From NCBI GenBank assembly GCA_945892765.1, contig CAMDDQ010000002.1, forward strand, positions 3,427-67,426: a stretch of 64,000 nucleotides of DNA, read 5' to 3'. The translations under genes and the position numbers were made by a program. Each line of letters begins with the position of its first letter. Position 1 is the stretch's first letter. Below, one piece after another: positions 1 to 46,890 of the stretch. The notes beneath the pieces are model-generated. The model did not search any database. It was not told the DNA's origin and worked only from the letters and a program-made list of their open reading frames with translations. This DNA is from Asaia bogorensis (GTDB lineage: Bacteria > Pseudomonadota > Alphaproteobacteria > CACIAM-22H2).

Positions 1-789
1 TTCATCGCCCAGCCCAGGCTTGAAATCGGTGGCTTTGGGCGCACGGGCCAGCGAAAGGCCCAGACGTTCACCCTCGTCCAAAAGGCGGCGCAGCCTCACG
101 CCATCGATCTTGCTGCCGGTCAGGATAAGGCGGCGGGGGCGGCGGCCGGACCTGTCGAGCTTTTCAACAACTTGAGGGAGATCGTCCAGCGTGCCCAAAA
201 CTTCGATGCCGCGGATGTTGCGGCCGACATGGGTGCCGCGATCGTCGATGATGCCAACCACGCGGTATTGCGCGGTCGGCCGGTGGTCCATGGCGCGAAT
301 GAACATCTCGGCGCCGCTATCGATTCCGACCAGAAGTACCGGCACCCGCCGATTCGCGGTCTGATCCTCGCCTGAACGCAGTTCGAGCCGGCCATCCTTC
401 ATCAATCGATAAAGGACGCGCGGACCGCCGAGGAGGATGAGCAGAACGAACCAATTGATGACCATCATCGATCGGGGCATCGCTTGCAGGCGGGTCAGAA
501 AAAACATGATCGGCAGAAAGATGAGAATCGAATAGGTGACCGCGCGGGCGATGGCGACAAGATCGCTCAAGGACGCATAACGCCAAATGCCCCGGTAAAG
601 CCGCAACGACCAGAACACGCTCGCGGAAACCAGCGTGAACATGACCGTGCCGATGATCAGAAAGTCCTGCGATGCCGACTGGAAGTCCTCGCCCAGCCGC
701 AGGCGCAGGGACAGGACAAAAGAAATTGCCGCCATCGTCATGTCATGCGCAAAGGCGACGACAGGCAGATATCGGCTAGGAAATTTCAC
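1..789 (-). CDS. Polysaccharide biosynthesis protein, WbpM/CapD/PglF-like membrane-anchored nucleotide-sugar 4,6-dehydratase. This is the N-terminal part; the gene continues beyond the window start.
   Basis: Manual minus-strand translation is open from about 789 to 1 with an in-frame stop at 838-840. The N-terminal TM segments read 'VAFAHDMTMAAISFVLSLRLRLG...'. A Rossmann/CoA-binding-like segment follows: 'VPVLLVGIDSGAEMFIRAMDHRPTAQYRVVGIIDDRGTHVGRNIRGIEVLGTLDDL', typical of WbpM-family N-termini. The start codon (GTG 787-789 or ATG 739-741) is uncertain. It was not listed in the ORF track because the stop lies outside the window. Confidence 0.6.
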   Translation of the reverse strand, partial: MKFPSRYLPVVAFAHDMTMAAISFVLSLRLRLGEDFQSASQDFLIIGTVMFTLVSASVFWSLRLYRGIWRYASLSDLVAIARAVTYSILIFLPIMFFLTRLQAMPRSMMVINWFVLLILLGGPRVLYRLMKDGRLELRSGEDQTANRRVPVLLVGIDSGAEMFIRAMDHRPTAQYRVVGIIDDRGTHVGRNIRGIEVLGTLDDLPQVVEKLDRSGRRPRRLILTGSKIDGVRLRRLLDEGERLGLSLARAPKATDFKPGLGDE

Positions 790-880
790 GAATTTTGACC
801 GTAGCTCACGATGACGGCGATTACAGGGCAGGCCAACTCAACCCGAGTCCGACACTACCACACCGAGCCGGCGGCTCGCA

Positions 881-1909
881 TCATCGCTGCGTGCTGCCGG
901 GTCCCCGATCGCGGGGGAGTCGCCCATCCGAAAAATGCCACAGAAGAGCAGCTACGGTGAAGGTCGCGGCGCCCAGTGCCGCCCAACGGGCGCCAGTCTC
1001 GGCCGAGACCGACAGTCCAATCAAGACGAGGTTGGCGATGAGGATGGCGCCGGCCGTCTGGGCGTGGGTAAACCCTCGACGCACCGCCTTTTGGTAGAAA
1101 TGCTGCGCGTGGGCCCGCCACACTTTTTCGCCGCGCGCGAGGCGTTTCAGCAAAGTGAGCGTGGCATCGGCCAGATAATAGAGGGGTAGAATCGCGGCGG
1201 CGCACCAAGCCCCATCGCTCGCCATCGACAAGAGAAGCCAGCCGAGCAGATAACCCAGCGTTACGCTTCCGACATCGCCCAGAAAAATGCGGGCCGGGTG
1301 CCAGTTCCACCACAGAAAACCCGCGGCCGCGCCGGCAAGGGTGGCACCGTGGAAGACCAACGCGCCGCTTAGTCCGAAAGTTGCCGCCACGGCCGCCACG
1401 CCGGATCCCAAAGCCAAGGTTTCAACGCCCGAAATTCCGTCGATTCCGTCCATGAAGTTGAAGAGATTGACAAACCACACCCACAAAACGCCGGTGACGG
1501 CGATATCGACGGCCGGCGGCAGCAATCCCTGAAAGATCGGCGGTTGGTCGAGAAAGGCGGTGAGGCCGACCGCAACTGCGATTGCCTGCCCCAGCAGCCG
1601 CCATGCCGGCGACAGGCCGCGCAGGTCGTCGAACCAACACAAGGCGGCAAGGCCCAGCGTGGCGGCAACGATCGACCAGAATCCGAAGGCTTCCGCAAAC
1701 CCCAGAAAAGCCAATCCGACCCAAACGATAAGCGTGGCGCCGACGACGGCGATACCGCCGCCGCGCGGCGTGGGCAGGCGATGCGAGCTGCGTTCATTGG
1801 GATGATCGAGGATGGCCTTCTGCCGCAGCAGGCGGATCAGGAACCCGGTGCCAGCGAAAGCCAGGGCTGCACACAGTCCCGCGGCGGCTATCGCGCCTGT
1901 CCACGCCAT
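881..1909 (-). CDS. Glycosyltransferase family 4, undecaprenyl-phosphate HexNAc-1-phosphate transferase (WecA/WbpL/MraY family). Initiating transferase.
   Basis: Contains the motif 'NLFNFMDGIDG' and a multi-TM profile typical of polyprenyl-phosphate sugar-1-P transferases. It sits next to the WbpM-like gene, as wbpL-wbpM do in Pseudomonas O-antigen loci. Confidence 0.8.
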   Translation of the reverse strand: MAWTGAIAAAGLCAALAFAGTGFLIRLLRQKAILDHPNERSSHRLPTPRGGGIAVVGATLIVWVGLAFLGFAEAFGFWSIVAATLGLAALCWFDDLRGLSPAWRLLGQAIAVAVGLTAFLDQPPIFQGLLPPAVDIAVTGVLWVWFVNLFNFMDGIDGISGVETLALGSGVAAVAATFGLSGALVFHGATLAGAAAGFLWWNWHPARIFLGDVGSVTLGYLLGWLLLSMASDGAWCAAAILPLYYLADATLTLLKRLARGEKVWRAHAQHFYQKAVRRGFTHAQTAGAILIANLVLIGLSVSAETGARWAALGAATFTVAALLWHFSDGRLPRDRGPGSTQR

Positions 1910-1915
1910 CGCCGG

Positions 1916-3283
1916 TCAGCGTTTTGCGCGGCCGATGGCGGCGGCGAAGGCAGCGGTCAACCACAATCCGCCCTGCCACCAGGCCTGCCACAGCCCGAAA
2001 CTTATTGATGCCAAGACCAGGGCAGTCGTGATCTGCGCCAGCCAGGCCGCCTTGACGTCGCGATCGGACAGCCTGCGAACCGCGGCGGCAGCGGCGAGAA
2101 TCAGCGCTGATCCCAGTGCGGCTCCCACGACGCCAAGCTCCAACCAGAGCTGCAGGGGGGCATTGTGGGGGTGCAGGGGCATCAAGTCGATTTCCTCGCC
2201 TTGAAACCACTGGCGCAGGCTTTGGTAGCGGGGATCGCTTTCGGCAACTTCCCGATCGAGTCGGAGTTTGGCGCCGGTCTCGCCAATATGGCGCGAGGCG
2301 TTCAATCCCCAACCGGAAATCGGCCTCTCCGCGATCTCATGAGCGGAGAACTCCCAAATCCGCACGCGGTGATAGACCGAGGCAAGGACCGAGTGGCTCA
2401 TCTGGATTTGGGTGAGCGGCGGGAGAACATAGGTCGCCAGCGCGGGCGCGAGGACGATTCCGGCGGTCAAGGTCGCGGCGACAAAAGCGGTCGTCGGCGC
2501 GGGCCAGGGCCGGGCAACAACAAAGACACCGGCCCCGGCGAAAAGGGCAACCAACGCCGCCATGCTTTCGGTTTGCGCCACCAGAGCGAAAGCTCCCGCA
2601 GCAACCGTGGCGCCGAGCCATGGAGAGCGCTTCCACAGGACCAGGCCTGCCGGCCACAGACCCAGCGCCACGATTGTGGCCGGGCGATTGAGGACGGTCG
2701 GAAAACTCACGCCCGCGCTGCCCGTCAGGGACCCAAAGGCGTGGCTCAGGAAGCCGGATGTCGCCCATTCACCGAAAAGCAGGGCAAGGCCGGCAAGCAA
2801 ACCGATGACCGCACCCCGTTCAACCGCGCGCCGCTCATCCTCATGAAGGCTCATGGCTAGCCCCAGGGCGACGAGACCACTGAGAAACTCAACCCCAAGT
2901 TCGATGCTTAACGATAGGCTCGAACCGGCGCGCGGCGACCACGCGGCGCTCACCGCGCCCCAGACAACAACGCCGAATACGATCAATGCCGGTGTCGCGG
3001 GGACGCGGGGCAAATAGCGGTGGCGATGCCAATGCACACCGAGACCCAGCAATGCCGTCGCCGGGAGCAGGACACTTAGTCCCTTGGGCGCCAGAACCGC
3101 GAGGGGGAGCAAGAGTGCGGCAGCCAAGCCCAAAGCATGCCCGCCGTGCAAACGCGCAGCGCCGCGCCGGGTCACGAACGGCCCGACAACGGACTTGGAG
3201 GGGTGAGATGACGCCGCTTCCGCCAAAGGTGGCTCCTTATTTCGGGCGCAGACAACACTCGCCGCCCGAATCCTCGACATCAT
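1916..3283 (-). CDS. O-antigen ligase/polymerase family (Wzy_C / WaaL-like) integral membrane protein.
   Basis: About 10 predicted TM helices. Contains 'RVRIWEFSAHEIAERPISGWGLNASR' and 'HPHNAPLQLWLELGVVGA' (H..N...E motif of the O-antigen ligase family). The ORF-track start at 3361 runs through the upstream terminator hairpin, so the start was trimmed to the ATG at 3283. Confidence 0.55.
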   Translation of the reverse strand: MMSRIRAASVVCARNKEPPLAEAASSHPSKSVVGPFVTRRGAARLHGGHALGLAAALLLPLAVLAPKGLSVLLPATALLGLGVHWHRHRYLPRVPATPALIVFGVVVWGAVSAAWSPRAGSSLSLSIELGVEFLSGLVALGLAMSLHEDERRAVERGAVIGLLAGLALLFGEWATSGFLSHAFGSLTGSAGVSFPTVLNRPATIVALGLWPAGLVLWKRSPWLGATVAAGAFALVAQTESMAALVALFAGAGVFVVARPWPAPTTAFVAATLTAGIVLAPALATYVLPPLTQIQMSHSVLASVYHRVRIWEFSAHEIAERPISGWGLNASRHIGETGAKLRLDREVAESDPRYQSLRQWFQGEEIDLMPLHPHNAPLQLWLELGVVGAALGSALILAAAAAVRRLSDRDVKAAWLAQITTALVLASISFGLWQAWWQGGLWLTAAFAAAIGRAKR

Positions 3284-3310
3284 CCCCGTGGATAACCTCC
3301 CCGTCACGCC

Positions 3311-3350: not shown

Positions 3351-3378
3351 CTTGTCGGCAATCCAACCTATGACGGGG

Positions 3379-4248
3379 TTACATCCAGCCTCGCTCGACT
3401 TTCAGCCGCAATCCCTCGGCGAACGGACGCGGGTGGACGCCAAGGCGCGTCTGCATGTCGGAAATGTCGAACCGTTTATCCTCGCCGGCGCGGGCGAATT
3501 CCGCCGCATCGAAGGGAATCAGGATCCCACATCGCGCCGCGAGGCGGGCAAGCGCAGCCAGCCATCCCAGCGGCACCGCGAGAACACGCGCCTTTCTACC
3601 CATGGCGCCGGCGCAGGCGCGGACCATTTCGGCATAGGTGATCGGTTGTGGACCCGCGATTATGATGGGCGGGCCGAATGCCTGCTTTTGGCTCGTCGCC
3701 GCGACCAGGGCCGCGACCACGTCGTCGACGAAGACGGGTTGCAGGACGTTTCTACCCCCATCCGGCAGCGGCAGGATCAAGGGCAGAAAGCGCGGCCAGC
3801 CCCGTGCCAAGCGCAGGATGCGGTTGACGTTGCGCTCGTCCGGAGCGCCATAGATCATCGTCGGGTGCAACATCACACCCGGCCGTCCGGAGGCGAGGAA
3901 CGCGGCCTCGCCCTTACGCACGGCCTCCGCGGCGGGGTCCGGTAGACGCGTGAACTTGCGCGTGCTGCCGGTGAGTACGATGCGCGGGCATTCTTGCGGA
4001 ATAGCGGTCAGCAGGGTCTCGGTGAAGCGGGCATGAGCCAAACTGACGACACAGTCCACGGCGTCGAGTTTTCCTGCCAAGGTCCGTGGGTCTTCGAGGT
4101 CGGCCGGGATTCGCGAGGCGCGCGGGTCGAGCCGGTTCAGCTTTTCGGTGTTCCGCCCAAGGGCATGAACCTCATGGCCATCGGCGCAGAGCCTTTCAAT
4201 CAGATAGCGGCCGGTCTTACCCGTGGCGCCGAAGACCGCGATCCTCAT
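3379..4248 (-). CDS. NAD(P)-binding SDR / NmrA-like family oxidoreductase (nucleoside-diphosphate-sugar epimerase/reductase type).
   Basis: N-terminal 'MRIAVFGATGKTGRYLIERL' GxxGxxG Rossmann motif. About 290 aa. Confidence 0.6.
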   Translation of the reverse strand: MRIAVFGATGKTGRYLIERLCADGHEVHALGRNTEKLNRLDPRASRIPADLEDPRTLAGKLDAVDCVVSLAHARFTETLLTAIPQECPRIVLTGSTRKFTRLPDPAAEAVRKGEAAFLASGRPGVMLHPTMIYGAPDERNVNRILRLARGWPRFLPLILPLPDGGRNVLQPVFVDDVVAALVAATSQKQAFGPPIIIAGPQPITYAEMVRACAGAMGRKARVLAVPLGWLAALARLAARCGILIPFDAAEFARAGEDKRFDISDMQTRLGVHPRPFAEGLRLKVERGWM

Positions 4249-5381
4249 CGGCGGGCCGGAGCAACGCCGAGCAGTTCGATCTGCCGCTCCACGACTTTGG
4301 TTTCATCGTAAAGAGCGATTGCGCGGTCTCGTCCAGCCTCGCCCATGCGCGCCCGCAGGTCCCGGTCCACGACCAGTCGATTCAGGGCGGCCGCCAACGC
4401 GGGCGGGTCTTCCGCCGGCACCAGAATTCCGGTCGACTCCGCGGCAACCTCTTCGCGGCAGCCGCGGATATCGGTGGCCACCACGGGCAGGCCGGTAAAC
4501 ATGGCCTCGATGATCGACCGGGGCATGCCCTCGCGATGGGATGCCAACACGAAGATGTCGGCAGCCCCCAGCAAATTAGGTATGTCCGCGCGGTAGCCAA
4601 GCAGGCGAACCCGGCGATTGGGATCGGTTTGCGCCTTCTCAATCGCAACGTCGATGCCCGCCGCATGGTCGCTCGGCAACCTTTCGCCGACAGCCCACAA
4701 AATAGCGTTCACCTCGCGCATCGCCGTAAAAAGATCCGGATAACCCTTCTCGGCGACCAGCCTTCCCACAGTGACGATGACCACGGCCTCGTCCGGCGTT
4801 TCGAGCTGCGCGCGCAGAGCCGTACGCTCGCGGTCGCCAGCGGCCACGGGGTAAAACCGCGCGGGATCGGCGCCATTGCCGATCGCCTCGACGATCCCAC
4901 CGCGGCACAGGCGGAATCGCCGGGCCGTGGCCGCGTCCTCCGCCGACTGGGTGAATAGAATGTCAGTGACACGGCCCGGAACGAATTCAAGCGCCATGAA
5001 CAAAGTCCGCTTCCATAGCGGCATGCGGTCGTGAAAATAGAAACCGTGGGCGGTATAAACGATTCGCGGCACGCCGGCCCAGGCGGCGGCCAGACGCCCG
5101 ATCAAGGCACCGATCGGTGTGTGGGTATGAACAAGGTCGAAGTTTTCGCGGCGAAATAACCTCACCAAGGCGCGGAAGGCGCGGAGATGGGCCAAAGGGT
5201 TGTAGCCGCGGACGAAAGGCACGGTCTCGACTGTGAATCCCTGCGCCCGCACGCCGGCCAGAAGTGGTCCGTCGGCACAGACGCCCACGACCTGATGCCC
5301 CGCCTCCCGCATGCCGCGCATCAGCGGCAAGAGAAAGGTATGCAACGTGAAATCGACGGCGCAGAGCTGGCAGATTTTCAC
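4245..5381 (-). CDS. Glycosyltransferase family 1 (GT4).
   Basis: C-terminal 'GMPRSIIEAMFTGLPVVATDIRGCREEV' EX7E-type motif. A GTG start at 5381 overlaps the TGA of the upstream asnB-like gene (GTGA). Confidence 0.8.
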   Translation of the reverse strand: MKICQLCAVDFTLHTFLLPLMRGMREAGHQVVGVCADGPLLAGVRAQGFTVETVPFVRGYNPLAHLRAFRALVRLFRRENFDLVHTHTPIGALIGRLAAAWAGVPRIVYTAHGFYFHDRMPLWKRTLFMALEFVPGRVTDILFTQSAEDAATARRFRLCRGGIVEAIGNGADPARFYPVAAGDRERTALRAQLETPDEAVVIVTVGRLVAEKGYPDLFTAMREVNAILWAVGERLPSDHAAGIDVAIEKAQTDPNRRVRLLGYRADIPNLLGAADIFVLASHREGMPRSIIEAMFTGLPVVATDIRGCREEVAAESTGILVPAEDPPALAAALNRLVVDRDLRARMGEAGRDRAIALYDETKVVERQIELLGVAPARR

Positions 5382-7282
5382 GCGCGCGCCTCCGGCCGGC
5401 CATGCGCCTCGGCCCAGGACTGAAAGGCGAGCAGTGTCCACAAGGTCCAGGCCGTATCGCGGCGGCCGGATTTTAGGTCGGCCAGCCAGCGCTGTGGGGG
5501 TTCCGGCCTAAACAAACCCTGGCGCCTGAGCCGCGCCGGATCGATGGCGCGCCGCAAGCCGTCCGCCAGATCGCCGGTCAACCACGCGGCGACCGGCAAC
5601 TCGAAGCCTTTTTTGGGGCGCGTGAAGACTGATGCCGGGAGAACATCCGCGAAGGCGCGGCGCAGGATGCGTTTGCCGAGACCGGGTGCCAGCTTGAAGC
5701 CGCCGGGCATCGCCGCGGCGCATTCAATGACGTGGTGATCCAAATACGGGCATCTGACTTCGAGTCCGTTGGCCATGCTCATGCGGTCAACCTTCACCAG
5801 CATATCGCCAGGCAGGCCGAACGCGATTTCCGCGCCCAGCATGATATTGATCGGGTCGCTTCCGGGTTGGCCGTCACGGAGTTGTCCGACGAGCGCCTCC
5901 ACGGTCGGCGCCGCCGGTGCCGGTGAGACCAGCAACGCGTCGAGTTCATCTTCGTTCAGTGATCGCGCCCAGCCCGCCTGCCGTTCGGTCGCGGTCTTTC
6001 CGGCATGGGCGGCAAACCGCTTGATCCGCCGGCTCGCCTCCAGAACCGGGTTGTCCTTGCTCTCGGGCAAAAGGCGGACCAGGGACTCGATGACATTTTT
6101 TCGCAGCCAGCGCGGCAGGCGGCGATATCTCTCCGCATATAACTCGCCCTGATAACGGCGATAGCCACCAAACACTTCATCGGCGCCATCGCCCGACAGG
6201 GCAACCGTCACATGCGTCCGTGTTGCTCGCGAGACGAGATATGTCGGCACGGCCGAGCTATCGGCAAAGGGTTCATCGAGCCCGGCGAACACCTCCGGCA
6301 GCGCCGCCAATGCGTCGTTCGCGGAAACCGAGATTTCGGTGTGTTTGGTGCCGAGATGGTTGGCAACTGCGAGCGCGGCGGGTCTTTCTTCGTAATATTC
6401 GGGAGCGCCAGCAAAACCCACGGTAAAGGTACGGACCGTGCCACCCCGTTCGGCCATCACGGCGGCGATGATGGACGAATCGATGCCCCCGGAAAGAAAC
6501 GCGCCAACCGGAACATCGGCCACCAATCGATCCGCCACCGCGGTCTTCAAATGGCGCCTCAACACGGACGCGGCTTCATCCTCGGTGGCAAAGACAGGCG
6601 CGGCGGTTCTCTCGGGCCGATACCAGCGCGCGATGCTCATCCCTGGCGAGGAGAATCGGACAATATGCCCCGGCGGAACCTTGGTAACGCCGGATGCGAT
6701 CGATCGGGGCTCGGGGACGAAGCGCAAGGCGACATAGAGCCGCAACGCCTCCGGATCGATGGGGAATTGGGTACCCACTAGTTTTTCGAGGGCGATCAGA
6801 TCGGAGGCAAAGGCCAGCCGCTTTCCGTCATGGTGAAAAAGCAGAGGCTTCTTGCCGAATCGATCGCGTGCCAGGATCAACTCGCCTTTTTCGGGATCCC
6901 AGAGGGCGAAGGCGAACATGGCGGAAATCCGGTCGAGAAGGCCCTCGCCCCATTCGCGCCAACCCGCAAGCAGGATTTCGGTGTCGGATTGGGTCTGAAA
7001 GCGATGGCCGCGCGCCGCAAGCTCCTCGCGCAACGCGGTGAAATTATAGACTTCGCCATTATAGGTGACGACGAAACCATGGGCGGCCATCGGTTGGGCC
7101 GCCGCTTGAGTAAGGTCGATAATGGCAAGCCGGCGATGGCCGAAAGCGGCACGCTCGTCGAACCAGGTTGCTTCGCCGTCCGGACCGCGTCTCCGGAGCC
7201 GATCCAGTGCCGCCGCCAAGCGCGGTGCCACAATGGCCCGGTTGATGCCGCCGAGATCGACGAGTCCGGCGATGCCGCACAT
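5378..7282 (-). CDS. Asparagine synthase (glutamine-hydrolysing) family amidotransferase (AsnB/WbpS-like).
   Basis: N-terminal 'MCGIAG' with the Cys2 nucleophile. PP-loop 'SGGIDSS'. 634 aa. Confidence 0.85.
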   Translation of the reverse strand: MCGIAGLVDLGGINRAIVAPRLAAALDRLRRRGPDGEATWFDERAAFGHRRLAIIDLTQAAAQPMAAHGFVVTYNGEVYNFTALREELAARGHRFQTQSDTEILLAGWREWGEGLLDRISAMFAFALWDPEKGELILARDRFGKKPLLFHHDGKRLAFASDLIALEKLVGTQFPIDPEALRLYVALRFVPEPRSIASGVTKVPPGHIVRFSSPGMSIARWYRPERTAAPVFATEDEAASVLRRHLKTAVADRLVADVPVGAFLSGGIDSSIIAAVMAERGGTVRTFTVGFAGAPEYYEERPAALAVANHLGTKHTEISVSANDALAALPEVFAGLDEPFADSSAVPTYLVSRATRTHVTVALSGDGADEVFGGYRRYQGELYAERYRRLPRWLRKNVIESLVRLLPESKDNPVLEASRRIKRFAAHAGKTATERQAGWARSLNEDELDALLVSPAPAAPTVEALVGQLRDGQPGSDPINIMLGAEIAFGLPGDMLVKVDRMSMANGLEVRCPYLDHHVIECAAAMPGGFKLAPGLGKRILRRAFADVLPASVFTRPKKGFELPVAAWLTGDLADGLRRAIDPARLRRQGLFRPEPPQRWLADLKSGRRDTAWTLWTLLAFQSWAEAHGRPEARA

Positions 7283-7284
7283 GG

Positions 7285-13446: not shown

Positions 13447-13448
13447 GG

Positions 13449-26950: not shown

Positions 26951-26953
26951 GGA

Positions 26954-34420: not shown

Positions 34421-34421
34421 C

Positions 34422-37590: not shown

Positions 37591-37631
37591 GCCGATCCAA
37601 CTCTAGTTGAAGGGCCCAATTGCAACACTGG

Positions 37632-39774: not shown

Positions 39775-40913
39775 TTCACTCGCGGTAGGATGTAGTCCTT
39801 GCGTATGGCGTTGCCGTGACGGCGCACGAAATCGATCATGCCCACAATCAGTTCATCCGAGAGCGGATGGGGCTTCAATCCCAAATCCAGCAACCCGGTG
39901 TTCTTGGGATTGTAGTAGTGCTCTTCGGCCTCGCGCCTAGGGTTGTCGACCGGCCTTATCGCTACCTTGATCCCCGCGGCTTTGCCTGCTCGCTGAACGC
40001 GGTTCGCCAGTTCGTTCACCGAGAAGGTTTCGGTGAATTGGTTCAGTACACGGAATTCGCCGACCTTCGCCGGCTGGCGCAGAGCAAGTGCGACGCATTG
40101 GAGCGTGTCGCGAATGTCGAGATAGCCACGGGTCTGACCACCCTTGCCATACACAGTCAGCGGCTCGCCCGCTACCGCCTGCACGACAAATCGGTTCAAG
40201 ACGGTGCCGAAGATGTCGTCGTAGTTGAACAGCGGCGCGAGACGTTCGTCGGCGGCCAGTTCCTCCGTCTCGATCCCGTAGACCGGCCCTTGGTTCAAAT
40301 CGGTTACGGCAATATTCCAAACGCGCACGGCCAGATAGAGCAAGTCGCTGTCCTGGACCTTGGTCAGGTGATAGATCGATCCCGGCGTTTTCGGATAGAG
40401 GAAGCGATGTTCGCGTCCGTTGTGGGTGACGTCCAGATACCCTTCCTCAATATCTATATTCGGCGTCCCGTATTCGCCCATCGTGCCAAGCTTGACGATG
40501 TGGCAGCCGGGTGCTTTTTCGCGAACCGCCCATACAACGTTGAGCGTCGCCAGAAGATTGTTTTGAACGGTCGCGGCGGCGTGAGGCTGGCTCATCATCG
40601 AAAAAGGCGCCGAGGGTTGCTCGGCATAGTGAACGACGGAATCGGGACCGAATTCCCCGAACAGGCGCCGTAGGAATGCGTAGTCGGTGACGTCGCCGAC
40701 ATGCACGGCGATGCCGCGCCCACCGGCCGCGCGCCAGATCGCGGCGCGCTCGGGCATTTCCGGAACCCCAACCAATGGCTGGCAATCGAGATCGCGGCAA
40801 TTGCGCCGGCGCAAGTAGTTGTCCGCCACTGCCACGTCATGGCCCTGCGCGGCGAGGTTCATGGCCGTCGCCCAGCCGAGATAGCCGTCGCCGCCGAGCA
40901 CGAGCACTCTCAT
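39765..40913 (-). CDS. UDP-sulfoquinovose synthase homolog (SQD1/SqdB/Agl3 family).
   Basis: Near-identity to the SQD1 signature: 'VLVLGGDGYLGWATA', 'HYAEQPSAPFSM', 'VKLGTMGEYGTPNIDIEEGY', 'YHLTKVQDS', 'TDLNQGPVYGI'. Confidence 0.8.
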   Translation of the reverse strand: MRVLVLGGDGYLGWATAMNLAAQGHDVAVADNYLRRRNCRDLDCQPLVGVPEMPERAAIWRAAGGRGIAVHVGDVTDYAFLRRLFGEFGPDSVVHYAEQPSAPFSMMSQPHAAATVQNNLLATLNVVWAVREKAPGCHIVKLGTMGEYGTPNIDIEEGYLDVTHNGREHRFLYPKTPGSIYHLTKVQDSDLLYLAVRVWNIAVTDLNQGPVYGIETEELAADERLAPLFNYDDIFGTVLNRFVVQAVAGEPLTVYGKGGQTRGYLDIRDTLQCVALALRQPAKVGEFRVLNQFTETFSVNELANRVQRAGKAAGIKVAIRPVDNPRREAEEHYYNPKNTGLLDLGLKPHPLSDELIVGMIDFVRRHGNAIRKDYILPRVKWA

Positions 40914-41953
40914 GCGGCGGTCTCGGGTCTCAGAAGGCCGCTATCCCTTAAATAGGCGCGCAGCGAGTCGCGGTCCATGGGTGGGTGGTTGGCCGATGTA
41001 TAGGGCTGCTCCACCTGTTCGCGGAGAGTTTCGGGATAGCTGAAGTTCACATCGCGATAGAGATCGCGCAGGGCCGGGAGCACGGCAAAATGACGGCCAA
41101 GCTCGACTGACCGCCGGGTCTCCTCGCTGGTCATCAACTCCTCATAGAGCTTTTCTCCGGGGCGTGAGCCGATTTCCTTGATAAGGATCGCCTTCGGGTC
41201 AAGACCGAAAACCGGCGCCAATTCCTCGATCATCACACGCGCGAGGTCGGAGATGACGATCGTCGCCATCTTCGGGATGAAGACCTCGCCCCCGCGGGCC
41301 AGCGCCCCGGCCCCCAACACTAGATCGACGGCCTCGTCCAACGTCATGATGAACCGGGTCATCGCGCGATCGGTCAACGTGACGGCTCCGCCGCGCCGAA
41401 TTTGTTCGCGGAACAGCGGCACGACTGAACCGCGCGAACCCAGGACATTGCCGAAGCGGGTCGACGTGAATAGCGTTCCGTCGGGTGAAACGGCGGCAGC
41501 CGACATCAATCGCTCGCCCATCAGTTTCGATGCGCCCATCACATTGGTGGGGTTCACGGCCTTGTCGGAAGAGGTGTAGACGACCCTTGCCACCTTCGCC
41601 GCGCGGGCCGCGGCCACTACGTTTTGCACGCCCAGAATATTGGTTTGTACGGCTTCGAGCGGGCTGCGTTCGCACAGCGGCACATGTTTCAATGCCGCGG
41701 CGTGGAGGACGATGTCTACTCCCCGGCAGGCGTCGGCTACCTTGTCGCCGTCACGCACGTCGCCAAGGAGGGGAACAACCCGGTCCGCCCTGTGAGTCTC
41801 GGCCAGAAAGAACAGCTCGCTTTCATTGTTGTCGAGGGCGCGCAGTTCTCCCACGCCGAGGCCGAGCAGCCGAGTGACAAGCGCTCGCCCGACCGTGCCA
41901 GCCGCGCCGGTAACAAGCACGACGCGGCCTGAGAAAAGCATGCTAGGAGTCAC
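40910..41953 (-). CDS. PseB/CapD-like UDP-HexNAc 4,6-dehydratase, second copy (polysacc_synt_2).
   Basis: 'VVLVTGAAGTVGRALV' and 'MGASKLMGE'. Paralog of the 13449-14495 gene. Confidence 0.8.
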   Translation of the reverse strand: MTPSMLFSGRVVLVTGAAGTVGRALVTRLLGLGVGELRALDNNESELFFLAETHRADRVVPLLGDVRDGDKVADACRGVDIVLHAAALKHVPLCERSPLEAVQTNILGVQNVVAAARAAKVARVVYTSSDKAVNPTNVMGASKLMGERLMSAAAVSPDGTLFTSTRFGNVLGSRGSVVPLFREQIRRGGAVTLTDRAMTRFIMTLDEAVDLVLGAGALARGGEVFIPKMATIVISDLARVMIEELAPVFGLDPKAILIKEIGSRPGEKLYEELMTSEETRRSVELGRHFAVLPALRDLYRDVNFSYPETLREQVEQPYTSANHPPMDRDSLRAYLRDSGLLRPETAA

Positions 41954-42085: not shown

Positions 42086-43624
42086 TCAGGTGGCTTGTTG
42101 GAGAACGGCATTCACGTCGCTTTCGCCAAGGCTGTCGATTAGGCCCCCAAACGCGTTCTTTACGGCGGCGTCCAAGAGTGGCTCGGTCTGACCCTTGGTC
42201 TTGAGAGCAAAATTGTGCATATCGAAGGAACAGGCGATAGCCGCAGCCAGGAAACGGCTTCCATCCTTCCATGCCTTTTCGGCATCGACACCGTAGAGCG
42301 CGCGCTGAATGAACCCTTTGATTTGCGCCTCATCAATAACCGTCATGACGTGAGGGGCCATCGCATACATATTGTGTCGGCCGAACGTAATGACTGGCCG
42401 ACCGAGTGCCGCGGCTTCAAATCCCGCGGTCCCGGTAATGGTCACCGTAAATGCGGCCCGTCGCGCGCAATCAATGCCGCTTTCGCCCACATGGAGAAAG
42501 ACGACATTCTTCAAATCACCGATCTGATCGTAGAAATCGGTTGGCCGACGTCCGAGGGTGTAGAGATTTTCCTTGATCGCGAGAACGACACCCGCCGGTA
42601 GATCGCGGGCGATGGAGAGAATCGCGGCATGTTGGTTGAAGTATTCCGGAGACATGAGTTGCAAACTGGTTTCCGGCTCCTTGTGCAATGGGAAATATGC
42701 AAAGCGTCGGTCGGCAAGATCGGCAAGCCGGATGGTGCGTGAACCTGTCATGCGACGATAGGCGGCGTGTTCCCGAAGCGGGAAAGAAACGAACTCGCCG
42801 AAATCGAAACTCCGGGCTTTCTGATAGCCGCGTAGTTTCCAGTAGCCGTAGCTCAACGCGGCTACCGCGGCGCGGCGCAAACTTGTCGCGAGCGAGTGGC
42901 CGGTAAACCAGGTTTTCTTGGCGACAGCCATGCTGTAAGGCTGCTCTATTGTCGATTCCGGCCATGATGTCATGGCATGATAGGCGCGCTCGACCGCTGG
43001 GTTGAAGTAGTACTCGGTCGGCGTCCAATACCAGTAGTTTTTGTAGCGGCTCGTATCGAGTCGACGATAGAGAATGCCATGGGCGCGCGCCATCACGGCA
43101 GCGTCCTTGTCGCCTTGAAGCAGGATGGTCAGACCCTTGCCCTCGATTTCGCGGCGCCAGAAATCGAGCAACTCGCTATGCGCGTGCAGCATCTGGATAT
43201 AGCTGACGTCCCGATAGTGCTTCGATCGCGGGTAGTGAAAACTGCCGGGGCTGAAACCGCGTCCGAAATGCCGGTGGATGCAAGCAATCAGGCTGAATGT
43301 CGTGTCGCTCAGCTTCTCGAACGCCTGGGCGCGGGCGATGACCTCGGTTTCGTTCAGATCCGTGGCGCGCATGGCTTCCGGAATAACGTTGTTGTTGGAT
43401 ACGGAATCCCAGCGGCCGTGGGCGTTCATTTCTCGGAAGGCGCGGAGTTCCTCCGGACTGCGAACGTAAAGGTGGATCTTGGAGCCGTACCGCTCCTTGA
43501 GGCGGTCCGCCAGCTTGAGCGCGAGATCGCGCCAAACCGCGCGCACCTCAATCCCAACGCTGGCGAATCGACGTGACGCCGTCGCCTCATCGACATCTGG
43601 CGAGAATCCCGTGGCCGAACTCAT
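42086..43624 (-). CDS. Capsule-polysaccharide-biosynthesis (KpsS/KpsC-like, Capsule_synth) GT-B protein. Putative CMP-ulosonic-acid transferase.
   Basis: 'FAYFPLHKEPETS' and C-terminal 'TVTITGTAGFEAAALGRPVITFG' resemble KpsS/KpsC family motifs. The assignment is from memory of the family profile, not a computed search. Confidence 0.5.
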   Translation of the reverse strand: MSSATGFSPDVDEATASRRFASVGIEVRAVWRDLALKLADRLKERYGSKIHLYVRSPEELRAFREMNAHGRWDSVSNNNVIPEAMRATDLNETEVIARAQAFEKLSDTTFSLIACIHRHFGRGFSPGSFHYPRSKHYRDVSYIQMLHAHSELLDFWRREIEGKGLTILLQGDKDAAVMARAHGILYRRLDTSRYKNYWYWTPTEYYFNPAVERAYHAMTSWPESTIEQPYSMAVAKKTWFTGHSLATSLRRAAVAALSYGYWKLRGYQKARSFDFGEFVSFPLREHAAYRRMTGSRTIRLADLADRRFAYFPLHKEPETSLQLMSPEYFNQHAAILSIARDLPAGVVLAIKENLYTLGRRPTDFYDQIGDLKNVVFLHVGESGIDCARRAAFTVTITGTAGFEAAALGRPVITFGRHNMYAMAPHVMTVIDEAQIKGFIQRALYGVDAEKAWKDGSRFLAAAIACSFDMHNFALKTKGQTEPLLDAAVKNAFGGLIDSLGESDVNAVLQQAT

Positions 43625-44916
43625 TCGGCGCCCAACAGCGACATCAGCTTGTCAAGGCGCGGCGGATGGGCCGCCAACAGGCGCTCGCGCTCGACGAAAA
43701 GGCTCCCACCCTCCCAAGGCGCGTCGCTTAATGCAGATTCCAGCCGTCTTTCGAAATCTGGCGCCGCTGGGTTGACGAATATCGTGCCATATCCCTGACC
43801 GAGCGACGTCTCGCCCTGCCGGTCGTAGTGCTCTTCCCGGTAGTCCGCGCAATCGATGAAACGTCCTTCGGGGCTCGTGAATGCGACATTGGTCGGTGCG
43901 TTCACGATCGCCCGCCTGGACAGGGCGATCAGCACCTCTGGATGGGCGAGGCTGACAACGATGTGGGGATCGTGAAGCCAGCCAAGAGTATCGGAGAGGT
44001 AGGCGGCATTTTCGGCGAGAGGATGCGGTCGCACGAGAATCGTCGATTTCCGGCGGAGTTGCCGAAGGGCCATTAGAATCTGGCGGAAAGTCCTTTCTGC
44101 GGAATCGGGCGTGCGTAGATTGGCCGAGCTTGCCGTCTTCGGCGCAAAGAAGCAGTAGATCTCCCCAATTGGGTGCCCCGTCGCCCGCAACCGCTCCCGC
44201 TCGGCCGCCGCTTCGGCGATCACCAAGCGACGCCACGCTTCCAATTGGTTCGGGAGGCCCATGCACAAATTCGGTAGCGGCTGAACTGTGCCCCATCGAT
44301 TCAAAGCGTTCAGATAAAGGGTCTGCCGGTCATGGTAGTGGATCAGCGCATCGGCATCCCGCCCGAACAGCCGTCGCACCATGCTGGGTCCCAAATCCGA
44401 CACCATCAGGCGTGGCTGTACATGAGGATGAATGCCGGCATCGACTCCTCGCCCGCCCGCCAGGATGATGCCGCGGCCACGGCGCAGCCGCGCCAAAAGG
44501 AACCAGACCGGGTATGGGCCCGAGCTGAATTGTCGCCCGGCGAATAGGATCGGCCGCTTCCATCGCAACACCCAAACGCAGATGCGCCCGAATCCCGATA
44601 TTCTTCGCCACCATCGGACCAGGGTATTGGGCGCAGTCTTGGCATCGAGACAATGAAGCGTGCCGCATCGTTCGAGCCCGCGCATCAGCGTCGAATTGCG
44701 CCGGATGAAATCGAAATTCTTGGCGGAGAAGGTGACAAAACGGATTTGCCAGTCCGGCCGGGCTTCCTTCAACGCCAGCGCGGTTGGTAGATAGGTGTCG
44801 AAGTCGATGACTCGGGGCGAAAGCATGAAGACAACAAGACGCCGCCGGGATGCGCGCGCCGGCGCGAACGCAGCAGCGCCGTCCGCCATCGGGGTGTCCG
44901 CGTTCTCCGCCAGCAC
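43621..44916 (-). CDS. Hypothetical TagF-like GT-B protein (putative CDP/CMP-sugar transferase).
   Basis: 'ILVRPHPL' and downstream 'IVNAPTNVAFTSPEGRFI', similar to the HP and C-terminal motifs of glycerophosphotransferase-like enzymes. The match is weak. Confidence 0.4.
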   Translation of the reverse strand: MLAENADTPMADGAAAFAPARASRRRLVVFMLSPRVIDFDTYLPTALALKEARPDWQIRFVTFSAKNFDFIRRNSTLMRGLERCGTLHCLDAKTAPNTLVRWWRRISGFGRICVWVLRWKRPILFAGRQFSSGPYPVWFLLARLRRGRGIILAGGRGVDAGIHPHVQPRLMVSDLGPSMVRRLFGRDADALIHYHDRQTLYLNALNRWGTVQPLPNLCMGLPNQLEAWRRLVIAEAAAERERLRATGHPIGEIYCFFAPKTASSANLRTPDSAERTFRQILMALRQLRRKSTILVRPHPLAENAAYLSDTLGWLHDPHIVVSLAHPEVLIALSRRAIVNAPTNVAFTSPEGRFIDCADYREEHYDRQGETSLGQGYGTIFVNPAAPDFERRLESALSDAPWEGGSLFVERERLLAAHPPRLDKLMSLLGAE

Positions 44917-45675
44917 CTAACGCCGCTTCGCCGGAGAGGTCGCGCGCTGGTCGCAACGCATCATGTCGTCGCGTTCGGCGAACCACTCGGCCGAATATTC
45001 GCAATCCCGGTATTCGTCGAAATAGGGTCCGCCGATTGTGTAGTGGACCAACGCCGCATCGGGTCGGGGCGCTGACACGCCGACCAAGTGGTTCCATTTC
45101 GACGGCAGCTCGCCGATCAGTGAGTCGTCCTCGAGCCATTTAAACTGGTGGAGTTTAAGTCCGTTTGCCGCATTGACATAGGCCGGCGTCAACGCCCGAC
45201 ACCGGTCGCAATTGAACAGCATGACACTCGACCAGTTCTTCTTCCCGTATTTGGACTGCGGCTCATCGAGAAATTTCTTGGTCTCGGACGGGACATGATT
45301 GTGTTTGACCGCCATGACGGCGAAACGTTCGTCACGGAGGTGCCACAACGCGCCGATGTCCTCGCGCATGATCATGTCGCAATCCATGAAGATCGCCCAA
45401 CCGCGATAGTCCACAAGATGCGGCGTAAGGAATCTGGAAAACGAAAAATCCGACGATTGCAACGGCTCGCGCGGCCGCGTGAGTGAGCCGGCGAGTTGGG
45501 TCAACATTAGAGGCACCACACAAACCGGCTGGGTCGCCCGTTTGTGTATGCTGTGGACCAGCACGCTGAAGGCTGCCGCCTCGCGCGGGTCATAACCGAT
45601 GAAAACTCTGATCATTTTGGGAAGGAAACCTTGTGATCTCGGCAAAGCTACCGCAGTCCGGGTGAAAGCCTTCAC
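44917..45675 (-). CDS. Putative nucleotide-sugar glycosyltransferase with a DxD motif (Gly_transf_sug / OCH1 / Gb3-synthase-like).
   Basis: 'IRVFIGYDPREAAAFSVLVHSI' and 'AIFMDCDMIM' (DxD). Confidence 0.5.
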   Translation of the reverse strand: MKAFTRTAVALPRSQGFLPKMIRVFIGYDPREAAAFSVLVHSIHKRATQPVCVVPLMLTQLAGSLTRPREPLQSSDFSFSRFLTPHLVDYRGWAIFMDCDMIMREDIGALWHLRDERFAVMAVKHNHVPSETKKFLDEPQSKYGKKNWSSVMLFNCDRCRALTPAYVNAANGLKLHQFKWLEDDSLIGELPSKWNHLVGVSAPRPDAALVHYTIGGPYFDEYRDCEYSAEWFAERDDMMRCDQRATSPAKRR

Positions 45676-45755
45676 CCAGTGGAACTCGACACCAACCGCG
45701 CTCTAGGCCGCGGCAAACTGGGCTCGCCGAGGGCGAGCGCCAGAGACAGAGACGC

Positions 45756-46259
45756 CTAGGCGCAGGCGGCCACCGCGTCGAGCGGAAGCCTCACGCGCAC
45801 CGGGCGGCCAAGGAGTTGCAGAAGGACGACAACACGCTGAGAATCGGACCCGTCGTCAAACAACCCGATCTGATCGCTCAATGCCCCGGTGACCACGCGT
45901 ATCCGATCGCCCTTCGCGAAAATTGTCCCCCGGCCAAGGACCACGAAGCCGCAATCATCCTCGCGCGCCCGGATCGCCTCGATCACCTCCGGCGGCACGG
46001 GAATTGGTCCGTCACCGCCCGATACCAGCCGGTGAACGCCGACGGTGGAGTCGATGGAACGCCACCGCTGCCGCTCCATGTCGATGCCAACGAACAGATA
46101 GCCCGGAAACAGGGGGGCGGCGACAATTTCCGCGCGACCCGCATGCCGGCGCTGTTTCTTGTGACGGGGCAGGTAGACGGCGAATTCCTGGCGGCGCAAA
46201 TGCATTTCGGCCTGGGCTTCGGCGCGCGGCTGCGTATGGGCGACGTACCAGCGCTGCAT
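45756..46259 (-). CDS. NusG-family transcription antiterminator paralog (RfaH/UpxY-like).
   Basis: 'RWYVAHTQPRAEAQAEMHL' NGN domain. C-terminal KOW-like 'FAKGDRIRVVTGALSDQIGLF'. It lies directly upstream of, and on the same strand as, the glycan operon. Confidence 0.7.
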   Translation of the reverse strand: MQRWYVAHTQPRAEAQAEMHLRRQEFAVYLPRHKKQRRHAGRAEIVAAPLFPGYLFVGIDMERQRWRSIDSTVGVHRLVSGGDGPIPVPPEVIEAIRAREDDCGFVVLGRGTIFAKGDRIRVVTGALSDQIGLFDDGSDSQRVVVLLQLLGRPVRVRLPLDAVAACA

Positions 46260-46260
46260 G

Positions 46261-46890
46261 TCAGCGGTTCCGTCCGTGCGTGAGCCGTAGCAGATTGGGA
46301 GTCAGGATGCGTTCTGGATCGAAATTTGCTGCGGCTTCGTCAAAGGCGGCCTGCGGTGATCGCGTCTCGGTGAGGATGACGGCATCGACCGTGCCAAGCT
46401 GGCCCGGCAGCCTCGATACCTTCAGCCCGGCGAAAGTGTCGGCCTTACTCTTCGAATCCTGGATGCCGACCAGGACCACGCCATGTTCACGCGCGCATAG
46501 GGTGGCGATTTCCGCCAACTCGCTCGAACCCCACAGGGCGATGCGGCGCCAGTTTCGTTGCTCGCACAGTCCGAACAATTCCGAGAGCTGGCTGCGGGCC
46601 TTGCGAAAAAAATTGAACGACGACGACAGGTATTCCGCGGTCAGCCGGCTTTTTTCGGCGAATCCCTTGGGCGTGAGATAATACGCATAACGCTTCCGGG
46701 GAATTTGCCGGACCTTAATCAATCCCTTGCTCACACACCGGCGCAGATAGGCGTTCGTCAGTCCCAGCGCGATGCCAAGATCGCGGGATGCCGATCGCTG
46801 CGTGAGATCGCTGTTTTTTTCGACGGCGTTGAGCAAACCGAGCGTGATTTCGGTATCGCCCGCGCCCGTCGATGCCTGTGACTTCGCCAA
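46261..46890 (-). CDS. Winged helix-turn-helix transcriptional regulator with a C-terminal Rossmann-like domain.
   Basis: 'TQRSASRDLGIALGLTNAYLRRCVSKGLIKV' wHTH. TTG start at 46890 preceded by an AAGGA Shine-Dalgarno sequence. It is the first gene of the locus. Confidence 0.5.
   Translation of the reverse strand: MAKSQASTGAGDTEITLGLLNAVEKNSDLTQRSASRDLGIALGLTNAYLRRCVSKGLIKVRQIPRKRYAYYLTPKGFAEKSRLTAEYLSSSFNFFRKARSQLSELFGLCEQRNWRRIALWGSSELAEIATLCAREHGVVLVGIQDSKSKADTFAGLKVSRLPGQLGTVDAVILTETRSPQAAFDEAAANFDPERILTPNLLRLTHGRNR

Follow-up and report, generated by a model that had tools for sequence, protein, structure and literature searches.

Four NeuB-family synthases and three recurring gene cassettes within one glycan locus of an uncultured Rhodospirillaceae bacterium

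Nonulosonic acids such as sialic, legionaminic and pseudaminic acid shape the recognition of bacterial surfaces by hosts, phages and predators, and three textbook routes are taken to account for how they are made. Here we describe a glycan locus, found in a 64,000 nt stretch of contig CAMDDQ010000002.1 (the window), which carries four genes for NeuB-family synthases, named NeuB1 to NeuB4. Loci with more than one such gene are known: LA_1605-1615 of Leptospira interrogans holds two NeuB and two NeuA genes (PMC4758666), and Campylobacter jejuni encodes three NeuB variants (PMC7371886). The L. interrogans locus and the flagellin locus of C. jejuni combine more than one NeuB with more than one cytidylyltransferase and more than one nonulosonic acid, as the window locus appears to do. 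They differ from it in having two synthases instead of four (two of the three C. jejuni NeuB genes lie in the flagellin glycosylation locus), and in possessing canonical aminotransferases, NeuC and NeuD, which the window locus lacks. A first, sequence-only reading of this DNA had held that known loci carry a single synthase. These two systems show this to be false, as do the genome loci of NeuB4 relatives, 36 of 80 of which carry two or three. Four NeuB genes were found in none of the 173 loci compared, although this comparison is limited by their flanks of 8-10 kb. New here are four synthases in one locus, the absence from it of the canonical amination and hydrolysis enzymes, and three cassettes that recur and are uncharacterised; within one of these lie an SQD1 homologue and a radical S-adenosylmethionine (SAM) enzyme.

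The locus also resembles O-antigen clusters with the acetamidino trio of genes (Escherichia coli O145, WbuXYZ; Pseudomonas aeruginosa O5, WbpG, HisH2 and HisF2) in having a WbuX equivalog with HisH and HisF proteins. The terminal WbpL/WbpM-type pair of O-antigen clusters likewise has a counterpart, in a WecA-type gene at the 3' end followed by a protein with a WbaP/WbpM-type N-terminus. Unlike the acetamidino clusters, the window locus is without Wzx and Wzz, has an ATP-binding cassette (ABC) exporter instead, is far larger and contains four synthases. An initiating polyprenyl-phosphate transferase and a Wzy_C-family protein, two features expected of an O-antigen-type pathway on undecaprenyl diphosphate, are both present. 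On balance we lean towards reading the region as an O-antigen or lipopolysaccharide-type undecaprenyl-phosphate glycan locus with three ulosonic-acid cassettes, by which the cell would make three or four nine-carbon 2-keto-3-deoxy acids, activated with cytidine monophosphate (CMP), through non-textbook routes. What was observed is which genes are present, the families to which they belong, their conserved catalytic residues, their synteny and the recurrence of the cassettes; every substrate and product, the order of steps and a single glycan containing all of the sugars are inferred from these observations.

The run of genes extends from 881 to 46890 and contains 42 complete genes, all co-directional on the minus strand. 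The sequence-only reading of a unidirectional, tightly packed glycan locus of about 47 kb is thereby borne out, its figure of about 45 genes being slightly high. Nearly all of the genes overlap or lie less than 60 bp apart, the larger gaps being of 80 and 132 bp (the largest). The G+C content is about 63% throughout the window and even across the glycan locus. A MarR-like and then an RfaH-like regulator gene head the run, which ends with a Wzy_C gene and then a WecA-like gene. Because a further minus-strand gene from about 800 runs off position 1, the locus is longer than 47 kb and its far end lies outside the window. In a contig of 106,444 bp recovered from a different sample (ERZ1305449), the genes follow the identical order from the radical SAM gene through NeuB4, NeuB3, NeuB2 and NeuB1 to the WecA-like gene. 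Exact matches to the NeuB4 region also exist on short contigs of three further assemblies. The independent contig with identical order shows that the four-synthase arrangement is not an assembly artefact.

The synthase genes, with the bit scores of their products in Pfam and NCBIfam searches, are as follows.

11540..12610, minus strand: NeuB1, with SAF domain (PF03102 231 bits; TIGR03569 265 bits, TIGR03586 228 bits)
26954..27970, minus strand: NeuB2, with SAF domain (PF03102 195 bits; TIGR03569 250 bits, TIGR03586 203 bits)
33404..34420, minus strand: NeuB3, with SAF domain, second synthase of cassette C (PF03102 249 bits; TIGR03569 293 bits, TIGR03586 239 bits)
36598..37590, minus strand: NeuB4, the most divergent, with a degenerate SAF domain (PF03102 160 bits; TIGR03569 188 bits, TIGR03586 135 bits)

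All four synthases, predicted by the sequence-only reading as full-length NeuB-type proteins at these positions, score far above the Pfam gathering score of PF03102 (22.1 bits), so that they do belong to the NeuB family. The SAF domain that it assigned to each of them exceeds the Pfam threshold of 21 bits in NeuB1, NeuB2 and NeuB3, whereas in NeuB4 it reaches only a sub-threshold 18.2 bits. NeuB4 nevertheless aligns to solved NeuB structures through the C-terminal SAF region and has kept the equivalent of Arg314, a residue present in all four synthases and invariant across the NeuB4 subfamily. None of the four reaches the equivalog cut-offs of TIGR03569 (NeuB/LegI, 399.65 bits) or TIGR03586 (PseI, 340.25 bits). 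With N. meningitidis numbering, Glu25, Lys53, Gln55, Lys129, Tyr186, His215, Glu234, His236 and Asp247 are kept in all four, the exception being an Asp for Glu25 in NeuB1. The synthases are 28-44% identical to each other in pairwise comparison; the corresponding figure for C. jejuni PseI, N. meningitidis NeuB and B. subtilis SpsE is 33-35%. At one discriminating position Pse-type synthases have Phe and Neu/Leg-type synthases Gly (PMC7371886). At this site (Gly133 of N. meningitidis) NeuB1, NeuB2 and NeuB3 have Gly and NeuB4 has Ser, the PseI-type Phe occurring in none. The best solved relative of NeuB3 is the PseI structure 8h2c (167 bits). As the four synthases are divergent and retain their catalytic residues, several ulosonic acids or non-canonical substrates are the most reasonable reading.

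The subfamilies differ greatly in abundance. That of NeuB2 is large, with 3,751 matches at E < 1e-30 and identities of about 60% in Ferrovibrio, Xanthobacteraceae and Nitrospira. The NeuB4 subfamily is rare, comprising about 60 clusters of at least 40% identity among 5.8 billion proteins, all from metagenomes or metagenome-assembled genomes (MAGs), and identity falls to 40-42% for the closest match among species-representative genomes. The mechanically called reading frame of NeuB2 (26954-28576) has 202 additional in-frame codons on its upstream side, where it runs into the deacetylase gene. The NeuB2 in public databases is 338 amino acids long, which indicates that the longer frame is an artefact of high-GC sequence.

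Three cytidylyltransferases, one of them a fusion, had been predicted, and all three were recovered:

10135..10890, minus strand: CTP_A, SpsF/FlmC-type cytidylyltransferase of cassette A (PF02348 84.5 bits; 32% identical to CTP_C)
35834..36601, minus strand: CTP_C, SpsF/FlmC-type cytidylyltransferase of cassette C (PF02348 86.8 bits)
34422..35834, minus strand: fusion of a family 2 glycosyltransferase (GT2) with CTP_transf_3, cassette C (PF00535 110 bits and PF02348 39.4 bits; PseF model 73 bits, in the C-terminal half)

Each exceeds the PF02348 (CTP_transf_3) cut-off of 22.6 bits, and all of them fall short of the NCBIfam equivalogs, PseF and KdsB among these.

Genes of the canonical pathways were sought in the same 42 genes. 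Pfam scans revealed no DegT, no GNAT or hexapeptide acetyltransferase and no Glyco_tran_28_C domain, and by these domains PseC, PseH and PseG were not found in the locus. Epimerase_2 (NeuC/LegG) and LegC-type DegT were likewise absent from the locus by Pfam, and tblastn with two DegT proteins gave no match anywhere in the window. Without a DegT, Epimerase_2, PseG-type or PseH-type gene, the textbook routes to Neu5Ac, legionaminic acid and pseudaminic acid cannot be completed from the locus. These absences, the unreached equivalog cut-offs, and the SQD1 homologue and radical SAM/SPASM gene beside NeuB4 are unusual features beyond those of the sequence-only reading.

Cassette A (9506-14495) surrounds NeuB1 and CTP_A, and a trio of acetamidino-type genes is found elsewhere in the locus.

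9506..10138, minus strand: pseudaminic-acid-biosynthesis-associated methylase (TIGR03587 160.5 bits, above the cut-off of 112)
10887..11543, minus strand: small soluble GT2-fold protein (PF00535 82 bits)
12607..13446, minus strand: RmlD-like 4-ketoreductase (PF04321 133 bits; TIGR01214 119 bits)
13449..14495, minus strand: PseB, inverting UDP-GlcNAc 4,6-dehydratase (TIGR03589 512 bits, above the cut-off of 408, a true equivalog)
22619..23728, minus strand: WbuX-family N-acetyl sugar amidotransferase, a family that forms acetamidino groups (TIGR03573 315 bits, above the cut-off of 203)
23752..24498, minus strand: WbuZ/HisF2-like partner of WbuX (PF00977; WbuZ model 220 bits, AglZ/HisF2 model 187 bits)
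24507..25127, minus strand: HisH-type glutaminase partner, WbuY-like (PF00117; TIGR01855 218 bits)

In pathway order the cassette consists of PseB, the RmlD-like reductase, NeuB1, the small GT2 protein, the cytidylyltransferase and the pseudaminic-acid-associated methylase. A metagenome scan with NeuB1 gave at least 587 relatives confirmed by tblastn, and 35 loci of at least 9 kb were compared, all counts for them being among the matches listed. An RmlD-like gene is located directly upstream of the NeuB1 relative in 30 of the 35 and a GT2 gene directly downstream in 26, while PseB is present in 23 and a cytidylyltransferase in 19. In many of these loci PseB, reductase, NeuB1 and GT2 are directly contiguous. 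A DegT gene of any kind, looked for over 8 kb to each side, was seen in only seven.

The pseudaminic acid pathway of Campylobacter and Helicobacter (PseB, C, H, G, I and F) shares with cassette A a PseB, a NeuB-family synthase, a CTP_transf_3 protein and the TIGR03587 methylase. However, PseC, PseH and PseG are missing from cassette A, where a conserved RmlD-like reductase and the GT2 protein take their places. NeuB1 itself, with 228 bits, stays well below the PseI cut-off of 340, and at the discriminating position it has Gly in place of the Phe of PseI. A canonical pseudaminic acid pathway with its accessory genes elsewhere in the genome was considered and not adopted, because most related loci likewise have the RmlD-like reductase directly between PseB and NeuB1. 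PseB would make a uridine diphosphate (UDP)-linked 4-keto-6-deoxy sugar, which the RmlD-like enzyme would reduce at C4 in place of transamination. The small GT2 protein is proposed to release the sugar from UDP; its solved relatives are ordinary GT2/GT81 transferases. NeuB1 would then condense the released 6-deoxy-hexosamine with phosphoenolpyruvate (PEP), CTP_A would activate the product and the methylase would tailor it. WbuX with its HisH and HisF partners, or alternatively an AsnB enzyme, could turn the N-acetyl group into an acetamidino group. The small GT2 protein and the GT2 domain of the fusion were also compared as possible close relatives, which would have supported a common role, and they are not (E = 0.08).

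The predicted product of cassette A, by chemical analogy, is a fusaminic-acid-type 5-acylamino-7-hydroxy-3,5,9-trideoxy-nonulosonic acid. Fusobacterium nucleatum, the species from which this type of sugar is known, is associated with colorectal cancer. Fusaminic acid, 5-acetimidoylamino-3,5,9-trideoxy-non-2-ulosonic acid, is found next to L-6dAltNAc in the O-antigen of F. nucleatum 25586 (PMC13014188). It bears a hydroxyl and not a nitrogen at C7, as reduction of the PseB product followed by condensation with PEP would give, and the acetimidoyl group of that O-antigen (strain ATCC 25586) has its parallel in the WbuX, HisH and HisF of the window locus. The link between fusaminic acid and cassette A is one of chemical logic, as the F. 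nucleatum side is known from structure and not from genes. According to PMC7371886 the gene cluster had, as of 2020, 'not been investigated yet', and no report on it was found in the literature after that year. Cassette A is a concrete candidate for a fusaminic-acid-type pathway.

Cassette B (25124-29738) contains NeuB2 and three further genes.

25124..26950, minus strand: AsnB-type amidotransferase 2 (PF00733 186 bits)
27967..28917, minus strand: polysaccharide-deacetylase-family protein (PF01522 77 bits)
28914..29738, minus strand: formyltransferase-family protein (PF00551 37 bits; NF005414 48 bits)

NeuB2 is flanked by the AsnB-type gene on one side and by the deacetylase and then the formyltransferase gene on the other, and no dedicated cytidylyltransferase adjoins it. 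In two other genomes (L089 and L090) an AsnB gene also lies beside the NeuB2 relative, together with DegT, Gfo/Idh/MocA and cytidylyltransferase genes. In cassette B the deacetylase and formyltransferase, working with NeuB2 and AsnB, may exchange an N-acyl group, acetyl for formyl.

Cassette C is the largest of the three (33404-41953 plus 43621-44889). It contains NeuB4, NeuB3, CTP_C and the fusion protein in addition to the following:

40910..41953, minus strand: Pen/CapE/FnlA-like UDP-GlcNAc 4,6-dehydratase (PF02719 318 bits; best solved relative 6bwc, 266 bits)
39765..40913, minus strand: SQD1/SqdB-type UDP-sulfoquinovose synthase homologue (455 bits against Arabidopsis SQD1, 1qrr)
38758..39768, minus strand: GalE/WbgU/WbpP-like short-chain dehydrogenase/reductase (SDR) of 4-epimerase type (PF01370 196 bits; best solved relatives UDP-hexose 4-epimerases)
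37632..38771, minus strand: radical SAM/SPASM enzyme (PF04055, PF13186; TIGR04321 spiro-SPASM 88 bits)
43621..44889, minus strand: rare unannotated family, 431 amino acids, syntenic with cassette C

The order is Pen-like dehydratase, SQD1 homologue, 4-epimerase-like SDR, radical SAM/SPASM enzyme, NeuB4, CTP_C, the GT2 and cytidylyltransferase fusion, and NeuB3. This order recurs in eight other contigs (protein identities 45-73%), of which L005 and L006 are near-identical copies of one locus. The radical SAM/SPASM copies in related cassettes are 68-73% identical and the fusion is conserved in them. The first enzyme is most similar to Pen (6bwc) of the Pen/Pal route of Bacillus thuringiensis. 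With this enzyme and PseB there are two Polysacc_synt_2 proteins (13449-14495 and 40910-41953) and several further SDRs in the locus, in agreement with the two or three 4,6-dehydratases predicted.

The SQD1 homologue matches plant SQD1 end to end (residues 2-381 of 1qrr) and keeps the catalytic residues Thr145, Tyr182, His183 and Lys186. SQD1/SqdB belongs to the sulfolipid pathway and, as Agl3, to the N-glycan of Sulfolobus. The window homologue differs from these enzymes in falling below the equivalog cut-off (NF041015 441 bits, cut-off 575) and in its location, which is not beside sulfolipid genes but between dehydratase and epimerase genes upstream of a NeuB gene. In the locus shared by L005 and L006 (about 700-1900 and 6300-8500) the SQD1 homologue is in fragments and IS66-type transposase genes lie between the radical SAM gene and NeuB4, so this copy of the cassette appears to be decaying.

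Genome loci of NeuB4 relatives were compared over 10 kb on either side, 80 in all. Two NeuB genes occur in 33 of these and three in 3, and in 14 a radical SAM gene, the fusion and two NeuB genes are found together. Among the loci listed, a cytidylyltransferase gene nearly always follows the NeuB4-type gene directly. The hosts of the cassette C core include archaea, Omnitrophota, Nitrospira, Desulfovibrionaceae, Planctomycetes, Cloacimonadota and Pelagibacteraceae; the core is ancient and widespread. In locus L171 (14908-20999) cassette C is followed by an ABC exporter and a canonical pseudaminic acid set (dehydratase, DegT, a fusion of PseG and acetyltransferase, and a third NeuB), giving three NeuB genes in 21 kb. 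The NCBIfam spiro-SPASM model describes a single protein with cytidylyltransferase-like and radical SAM/SPASM parts and matches both of the genes that flank NeuB4. This links the two functions and points to a cytidylylated intermediate as a possible substrate of the radical enzyme. Literature searches for sulfoquinovose synthase with nonulosonic acids, for spiro-SPASM, and for N-acetylneuraminate synthase with radical SAM and cytidylyltransferase returned nothing. Related copies of cassette C in L007, L008, L172 and L173 contain one or more extra radical SAM genes whose products (about 400-710 amino acids) have a B12-binding domain; these genes are beside that of the SPASM enzyme in the first three and a few kb upstream of it in L173. 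Such genes are absent from the window and suggest that the same intermediate is C-methylated in some lineages.

The protein of 431 amino acids is encoded 6 kb upstream in the window, yet in 5 of the 8 contigs its homologue lies between the radical SAM gene and NeuB4, which assigns it to cassette C despite the distance. Its family has 86 relatives among 1.84 billion representatives. A five-sequence profile gave nothing credible against PDB sequences, Pfam scans of 54 members gave no family, and methyltransferase domains were present in one member only, presumably in the N-terminal part of the 735-residue relative P0329, of which residues 322-730, in the C-terminal part, form the family domain. 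Asp31, Pro35, His289 and His316 are invariant in the family and Pro317 is nearly so, giving an 'HP' motif. Profile-profile comparison with the family of the KpsC-like protein described below was not significant (probabilities of 0.2% and 2.6%), and a single-sequence AlphaFold model was unusable (pLDDT 40).

For cassette C, the Pen-like dehydratase, the SQD1 homologue and the 4-epimerase-like SDR would remodel a UDP-hexose or UDP-hexosamine. The radical SAM/SPASM enzyme and the rare protein of 431 amino acids would act around NeuB4 and its cytidylyltransferase, while the fusion would serve NeuB3. From archaea to Nitrospira and relatives of SAR11 the cassette combines two synthases with a radical SAM enzyme, to which an SQD1 homologue is added in alphaproteobacteria, and this suggests a sugar chemistry that has not been seen before. 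Along with the other two cassettes, it represents a recurring NeuB-type arrangement that is without the textbook aminotransferase and hydrolase steps, and the three should help to re-annotate many environmental genes now labelled 'N-acetylneuraminate synthase family protein'.

The remaining genes of the locus are chiefly concerned with transfer, decoration and export.

881..1909, minus strand: WecA/MraY-type polyprenyl-phosphate sugar-1-phosphate transferase, initiating (PF00953 109 bits; at least 6 hydrophobic segments)
1916..3226, minus strand: Wzy_C membrane protein of O-antigen ligase, polymerase or O-oligosaccharyltransferase type (PF04932 51 bits; at least 8 hydrophobic segments)
3379..4248, minus strand: NAD(P)-binding SDR-like protein (PF13460 and PF01370, both confined to the N-terminus)
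4245..5381, minus strand: GT1-type (Glycos_transf_1) glycosyltransferase a (PF00534 108 bits)
5378..7282, minus strand: AsnB-type glutamine amidotransferase 1 (PF00733 341 bits plus GATase domains; TIGR01536 465 bits)
7285..8385, minus strand: GT1-type glycosyltransferase b (PF13692, PF00534)
8379..9485, minus strand: GT1-type glycosyltransferase c (PF00534 123 bits)
14485..16131, minus strand: NodU-type carbamoyltransferase (PF16861, PF02543; NodU model 145 bits)
16101..17369, minus strand: GT1-type glycosyltransferase d (PF00534 61 bits)
17360..19045, minus strand: diverged AsnB-like protein, 561 amino acids, with no detectable glutaminase domain (PF00733 27 bits only), kept in the sister contig
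19042..20667, minus strand: no Pfam or NCBIfam match; a 37% identical relative in locus L092 lies next to a cassette A
20631..21707, minus strand: SDR epimerase/dehydratase (PF01370 144 bits)
21720..22598, minus strand: methyltransferase (PF13489 69 bits)
29735..31558, minus strand: ABC exporter with fused transmembrane and ATPase parts, HepA/MsbA/PglK-like (PF00005; 6 hydrophobic segments)
31564..32499, minus strand: no Pfam or NCBIfam match
32506..33348, minus strand: methyltransferase (PF13649)
42086..43624, minus strand: GT-B protein resembling KpsC/WbbB beta-Kdo transferases, not detected by Pfam
44917..45675, minus strand: weak GT8-like protein (PF01501 25 bits)

The glycosyltransferases comprise four of GT1 type, two of GT2, one weak GT8-like protein, one of WecA type and one KpsC-like GT-B protein. 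About seven GT1 and GT2 enzymes had been predicted; both types are present, the count being four and two. Among the decorating enzymes are the NodU-type carbamoyltransferase, three further methyltransferases and two AsnB-type amidotransferases that are full. The locus has only three membrane proteins, namely the WecA-type enzyme, the Wzy_C protein (436 amino acids as called in the sister contig) and the fused ABC exporter; no Wzx-type protein was found in it. The exporter scored 358 bits with HepA, 337 with MsbA and 168 with PglK, all below cut-off, and is a candidate lipid-linked glycan flippase. The KpsC-like protein is a candidate CMP-ulosonic-acid transferase; it differs from the retaining beta-Kdo transferases KpsC, KpsS and WbbB in its low identity to them of 12-15% and in a sub-threshold PF05159 score. 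In the proposed assembly, the GT-B transferases, the KpsC-like one included, would build the glycan on a primer laid by the WecA-type enzyme, the exporter would flip it, and the Wzy_C protein would ligate or polymerise it. An RfaH-like antiterminator would permit read-through of the long operon.

If the locus were not one system, two or three separate glycoconjugate pathways could stand side by side (for example O-antigen together with flagellin, pilin or S-layer glycosylation), each with one or two synthases, and no single polymer would hold three or four ulosonic acids. Each of the three cassettes does occur alone in other genomes, sister proteins are annotated as 'flagellin modification protein FlmC', and Wzy_C domains are also found in protein O-oligosaccharyltransferases. 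Moreover, only four to seven ordinary glycosyltransferases are available for what would be a very complex repeat unit. However, the genes lie on one strand, mostly overlapping and with no gap above 132 bp, under a single regulator pair and in an order repeated in the sister contig, and no Maf or FlmG-type flagellin glycosyltransferase domain was seen in any Pfam scan. We regard separate pathways as improbable, though deserving of attention. The sequence-only reading had proposed several nonulosonic acids in one polymer, or new condensation chemistry. Several acids or non-canonical substrates agree with our own view, whereas its single polymer is an overstatement, the locus being a composite of three cassettes that also occur apart from one another. 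A redundancy among the synthases, some being isozymes or inactive partners such as heterodimer subunits so that one or two sugars are made, would fit the 36 genome loci, out of 80, in which another NeuB accompanies the NeuB4-type gene, the excess of four synthases over three cytidylyltransferases, and the fact that NeuB enzymes are domain-swapped dimers, as in the N. meningitidis structure. Yet the metal-binding, PEP-binding and Arg314 residues are kept in all four, each synthase falls in a subfamily of its own that is conserved across phyla with its own neighbours, and their divergence equals that between enzymes of known different specificity, which makes redundancy very improbable. That the arrangement is a chimera of assembly or binning, as might be feared of a metagenome-assembled contig, is scarcely credible given the contig of 106,444 bp with the same order across all four synthases, the exact short matches from three assemblies and the even GC.

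A further possibility concerns the substrate of NeuB4, and perhaps that of NeuB3, which could be a sulfonated or radical-SAM-remodelled sugar, leading to a new class of ulosonic acid such as a 9-deoxy-9-sulfo-nonulosonic acid. The catalytic residues of the SQD1 homologue are intact, and its gene lies between those of the Pen-like dehydratase and the 4-epimerase-like SDR, directly upstream of the radical SAM and NeuB4 genes, a placement repeated in seven other contigs at 58-71% identity, with fragments in two, L005 and L006. NeuB4 has Ser in place of the Gly of Neu/Leg or the Phe of PseI enzymes, several of its sugar-side residues differ, and some related cassettes carry B12-dependent radical SAM enzymes. 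On the other hand, an SQD1 homologue of at least 50% identity is found in none of the 80 genome loci, and the core exists in distant phyla without SQD1. The enzyme may also just make UDP-sulfoquinovose for use by a glycosyltransferase; the locus has a weak GT8-like gene, and SqdD of Rhodobacter belongs to GT8. No sulfite-supplying genes are present in the locus and no such sugar has been reported in the literature searched. We therefore consider a sulfonated or remodelled substrate unlikely. In its fullest form, cassette C would be a two-synthase pathway in which the radical SAM/SPASM enzyme acts on a cytidylylated or UDP-linked intermediate and, in alphaproteobacteria, an SQD1-type enzyme installs a C-6 sulfonate before condensation with PEP to give a sulfonated nonulosonic acid (for example 9-deoxy-9-sulfo), while cassette A would be the missing fusaminic-type route. 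This combination we hold to be doubtful; if it were true, the sulfonated nonulosonic acid would be a sugar class never described.

We return to the O-antigen-type locus as preferred above, of which the two ends contain the following genes:

1..800, minus strand: partial gene, 5' part only, with membrane helices and an N-terminal domain as in WbaP/WcaJ/WbpM-type enzymes
45756..46259, minus strand: RfaH/UpxY-like NusG paralogue, operon antiterminator (PF02357)
46261..46890, minus strand: MarR-type regulator of the EPS-associated kind, first gene (PF13412; TIGR04176 64 bits)

The partial gene matches NCBIfam EPS_sugtrans at 63 bits over the N-terminal half of the model. At the other end, where the boundary is sound, a promoter-like site (46943-46914) lies just upstream of the first regulator gene. 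The next gene upstream, at 46994-48571 and likewise on the minus strand, codes for a heparinase II/III-like protein (PF07940 C-terminal domain, 234 bits; no NCBIfam match), which may or may not be part of the glycan system. It is followed by a housekeeping flank (48584-55712) with rpe, asd, a small plus-strand methyltransferase gene, leuB, leuD, leuC and trmD. The GC of this flank is similar to that of the locus, which thus bears no obvious sign of recent horizontal transfer. Scans of the window for tRNA genes and Rfam families detected nothing.

The host is an uncultured Rhodospirillaceae bacterium. Several proteins of the window have exact copies in public collections, encoded on a contig of 68,617 bp. 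The RfaH-like protein is identical to MSO89789, and MSO89797-MSO89800, annotated 'MAG: Rhodospirillaceae bacterium', fall in the same 90%-identity clusters as proteins of the window. With the RfaH model the RfaH-like protein scores 129.5 bits against a cut-off of 144.5, and 79 bits with the UpxY model. The RfaH ops element (GGCGGTAGNNTG) has no exact match in the window and no one-mismatch match in the leader; the seven one-mismatch matches are within chance, as 7 of 100 shuffles reach that number. The NeuB2-relative locus L089 (4848-5983), on an unrelated contig, opens with a MarR-type and NusG-like pair as in the window, suggesting that this regulatory head is common to such alphaproteobacterial glycan loci.

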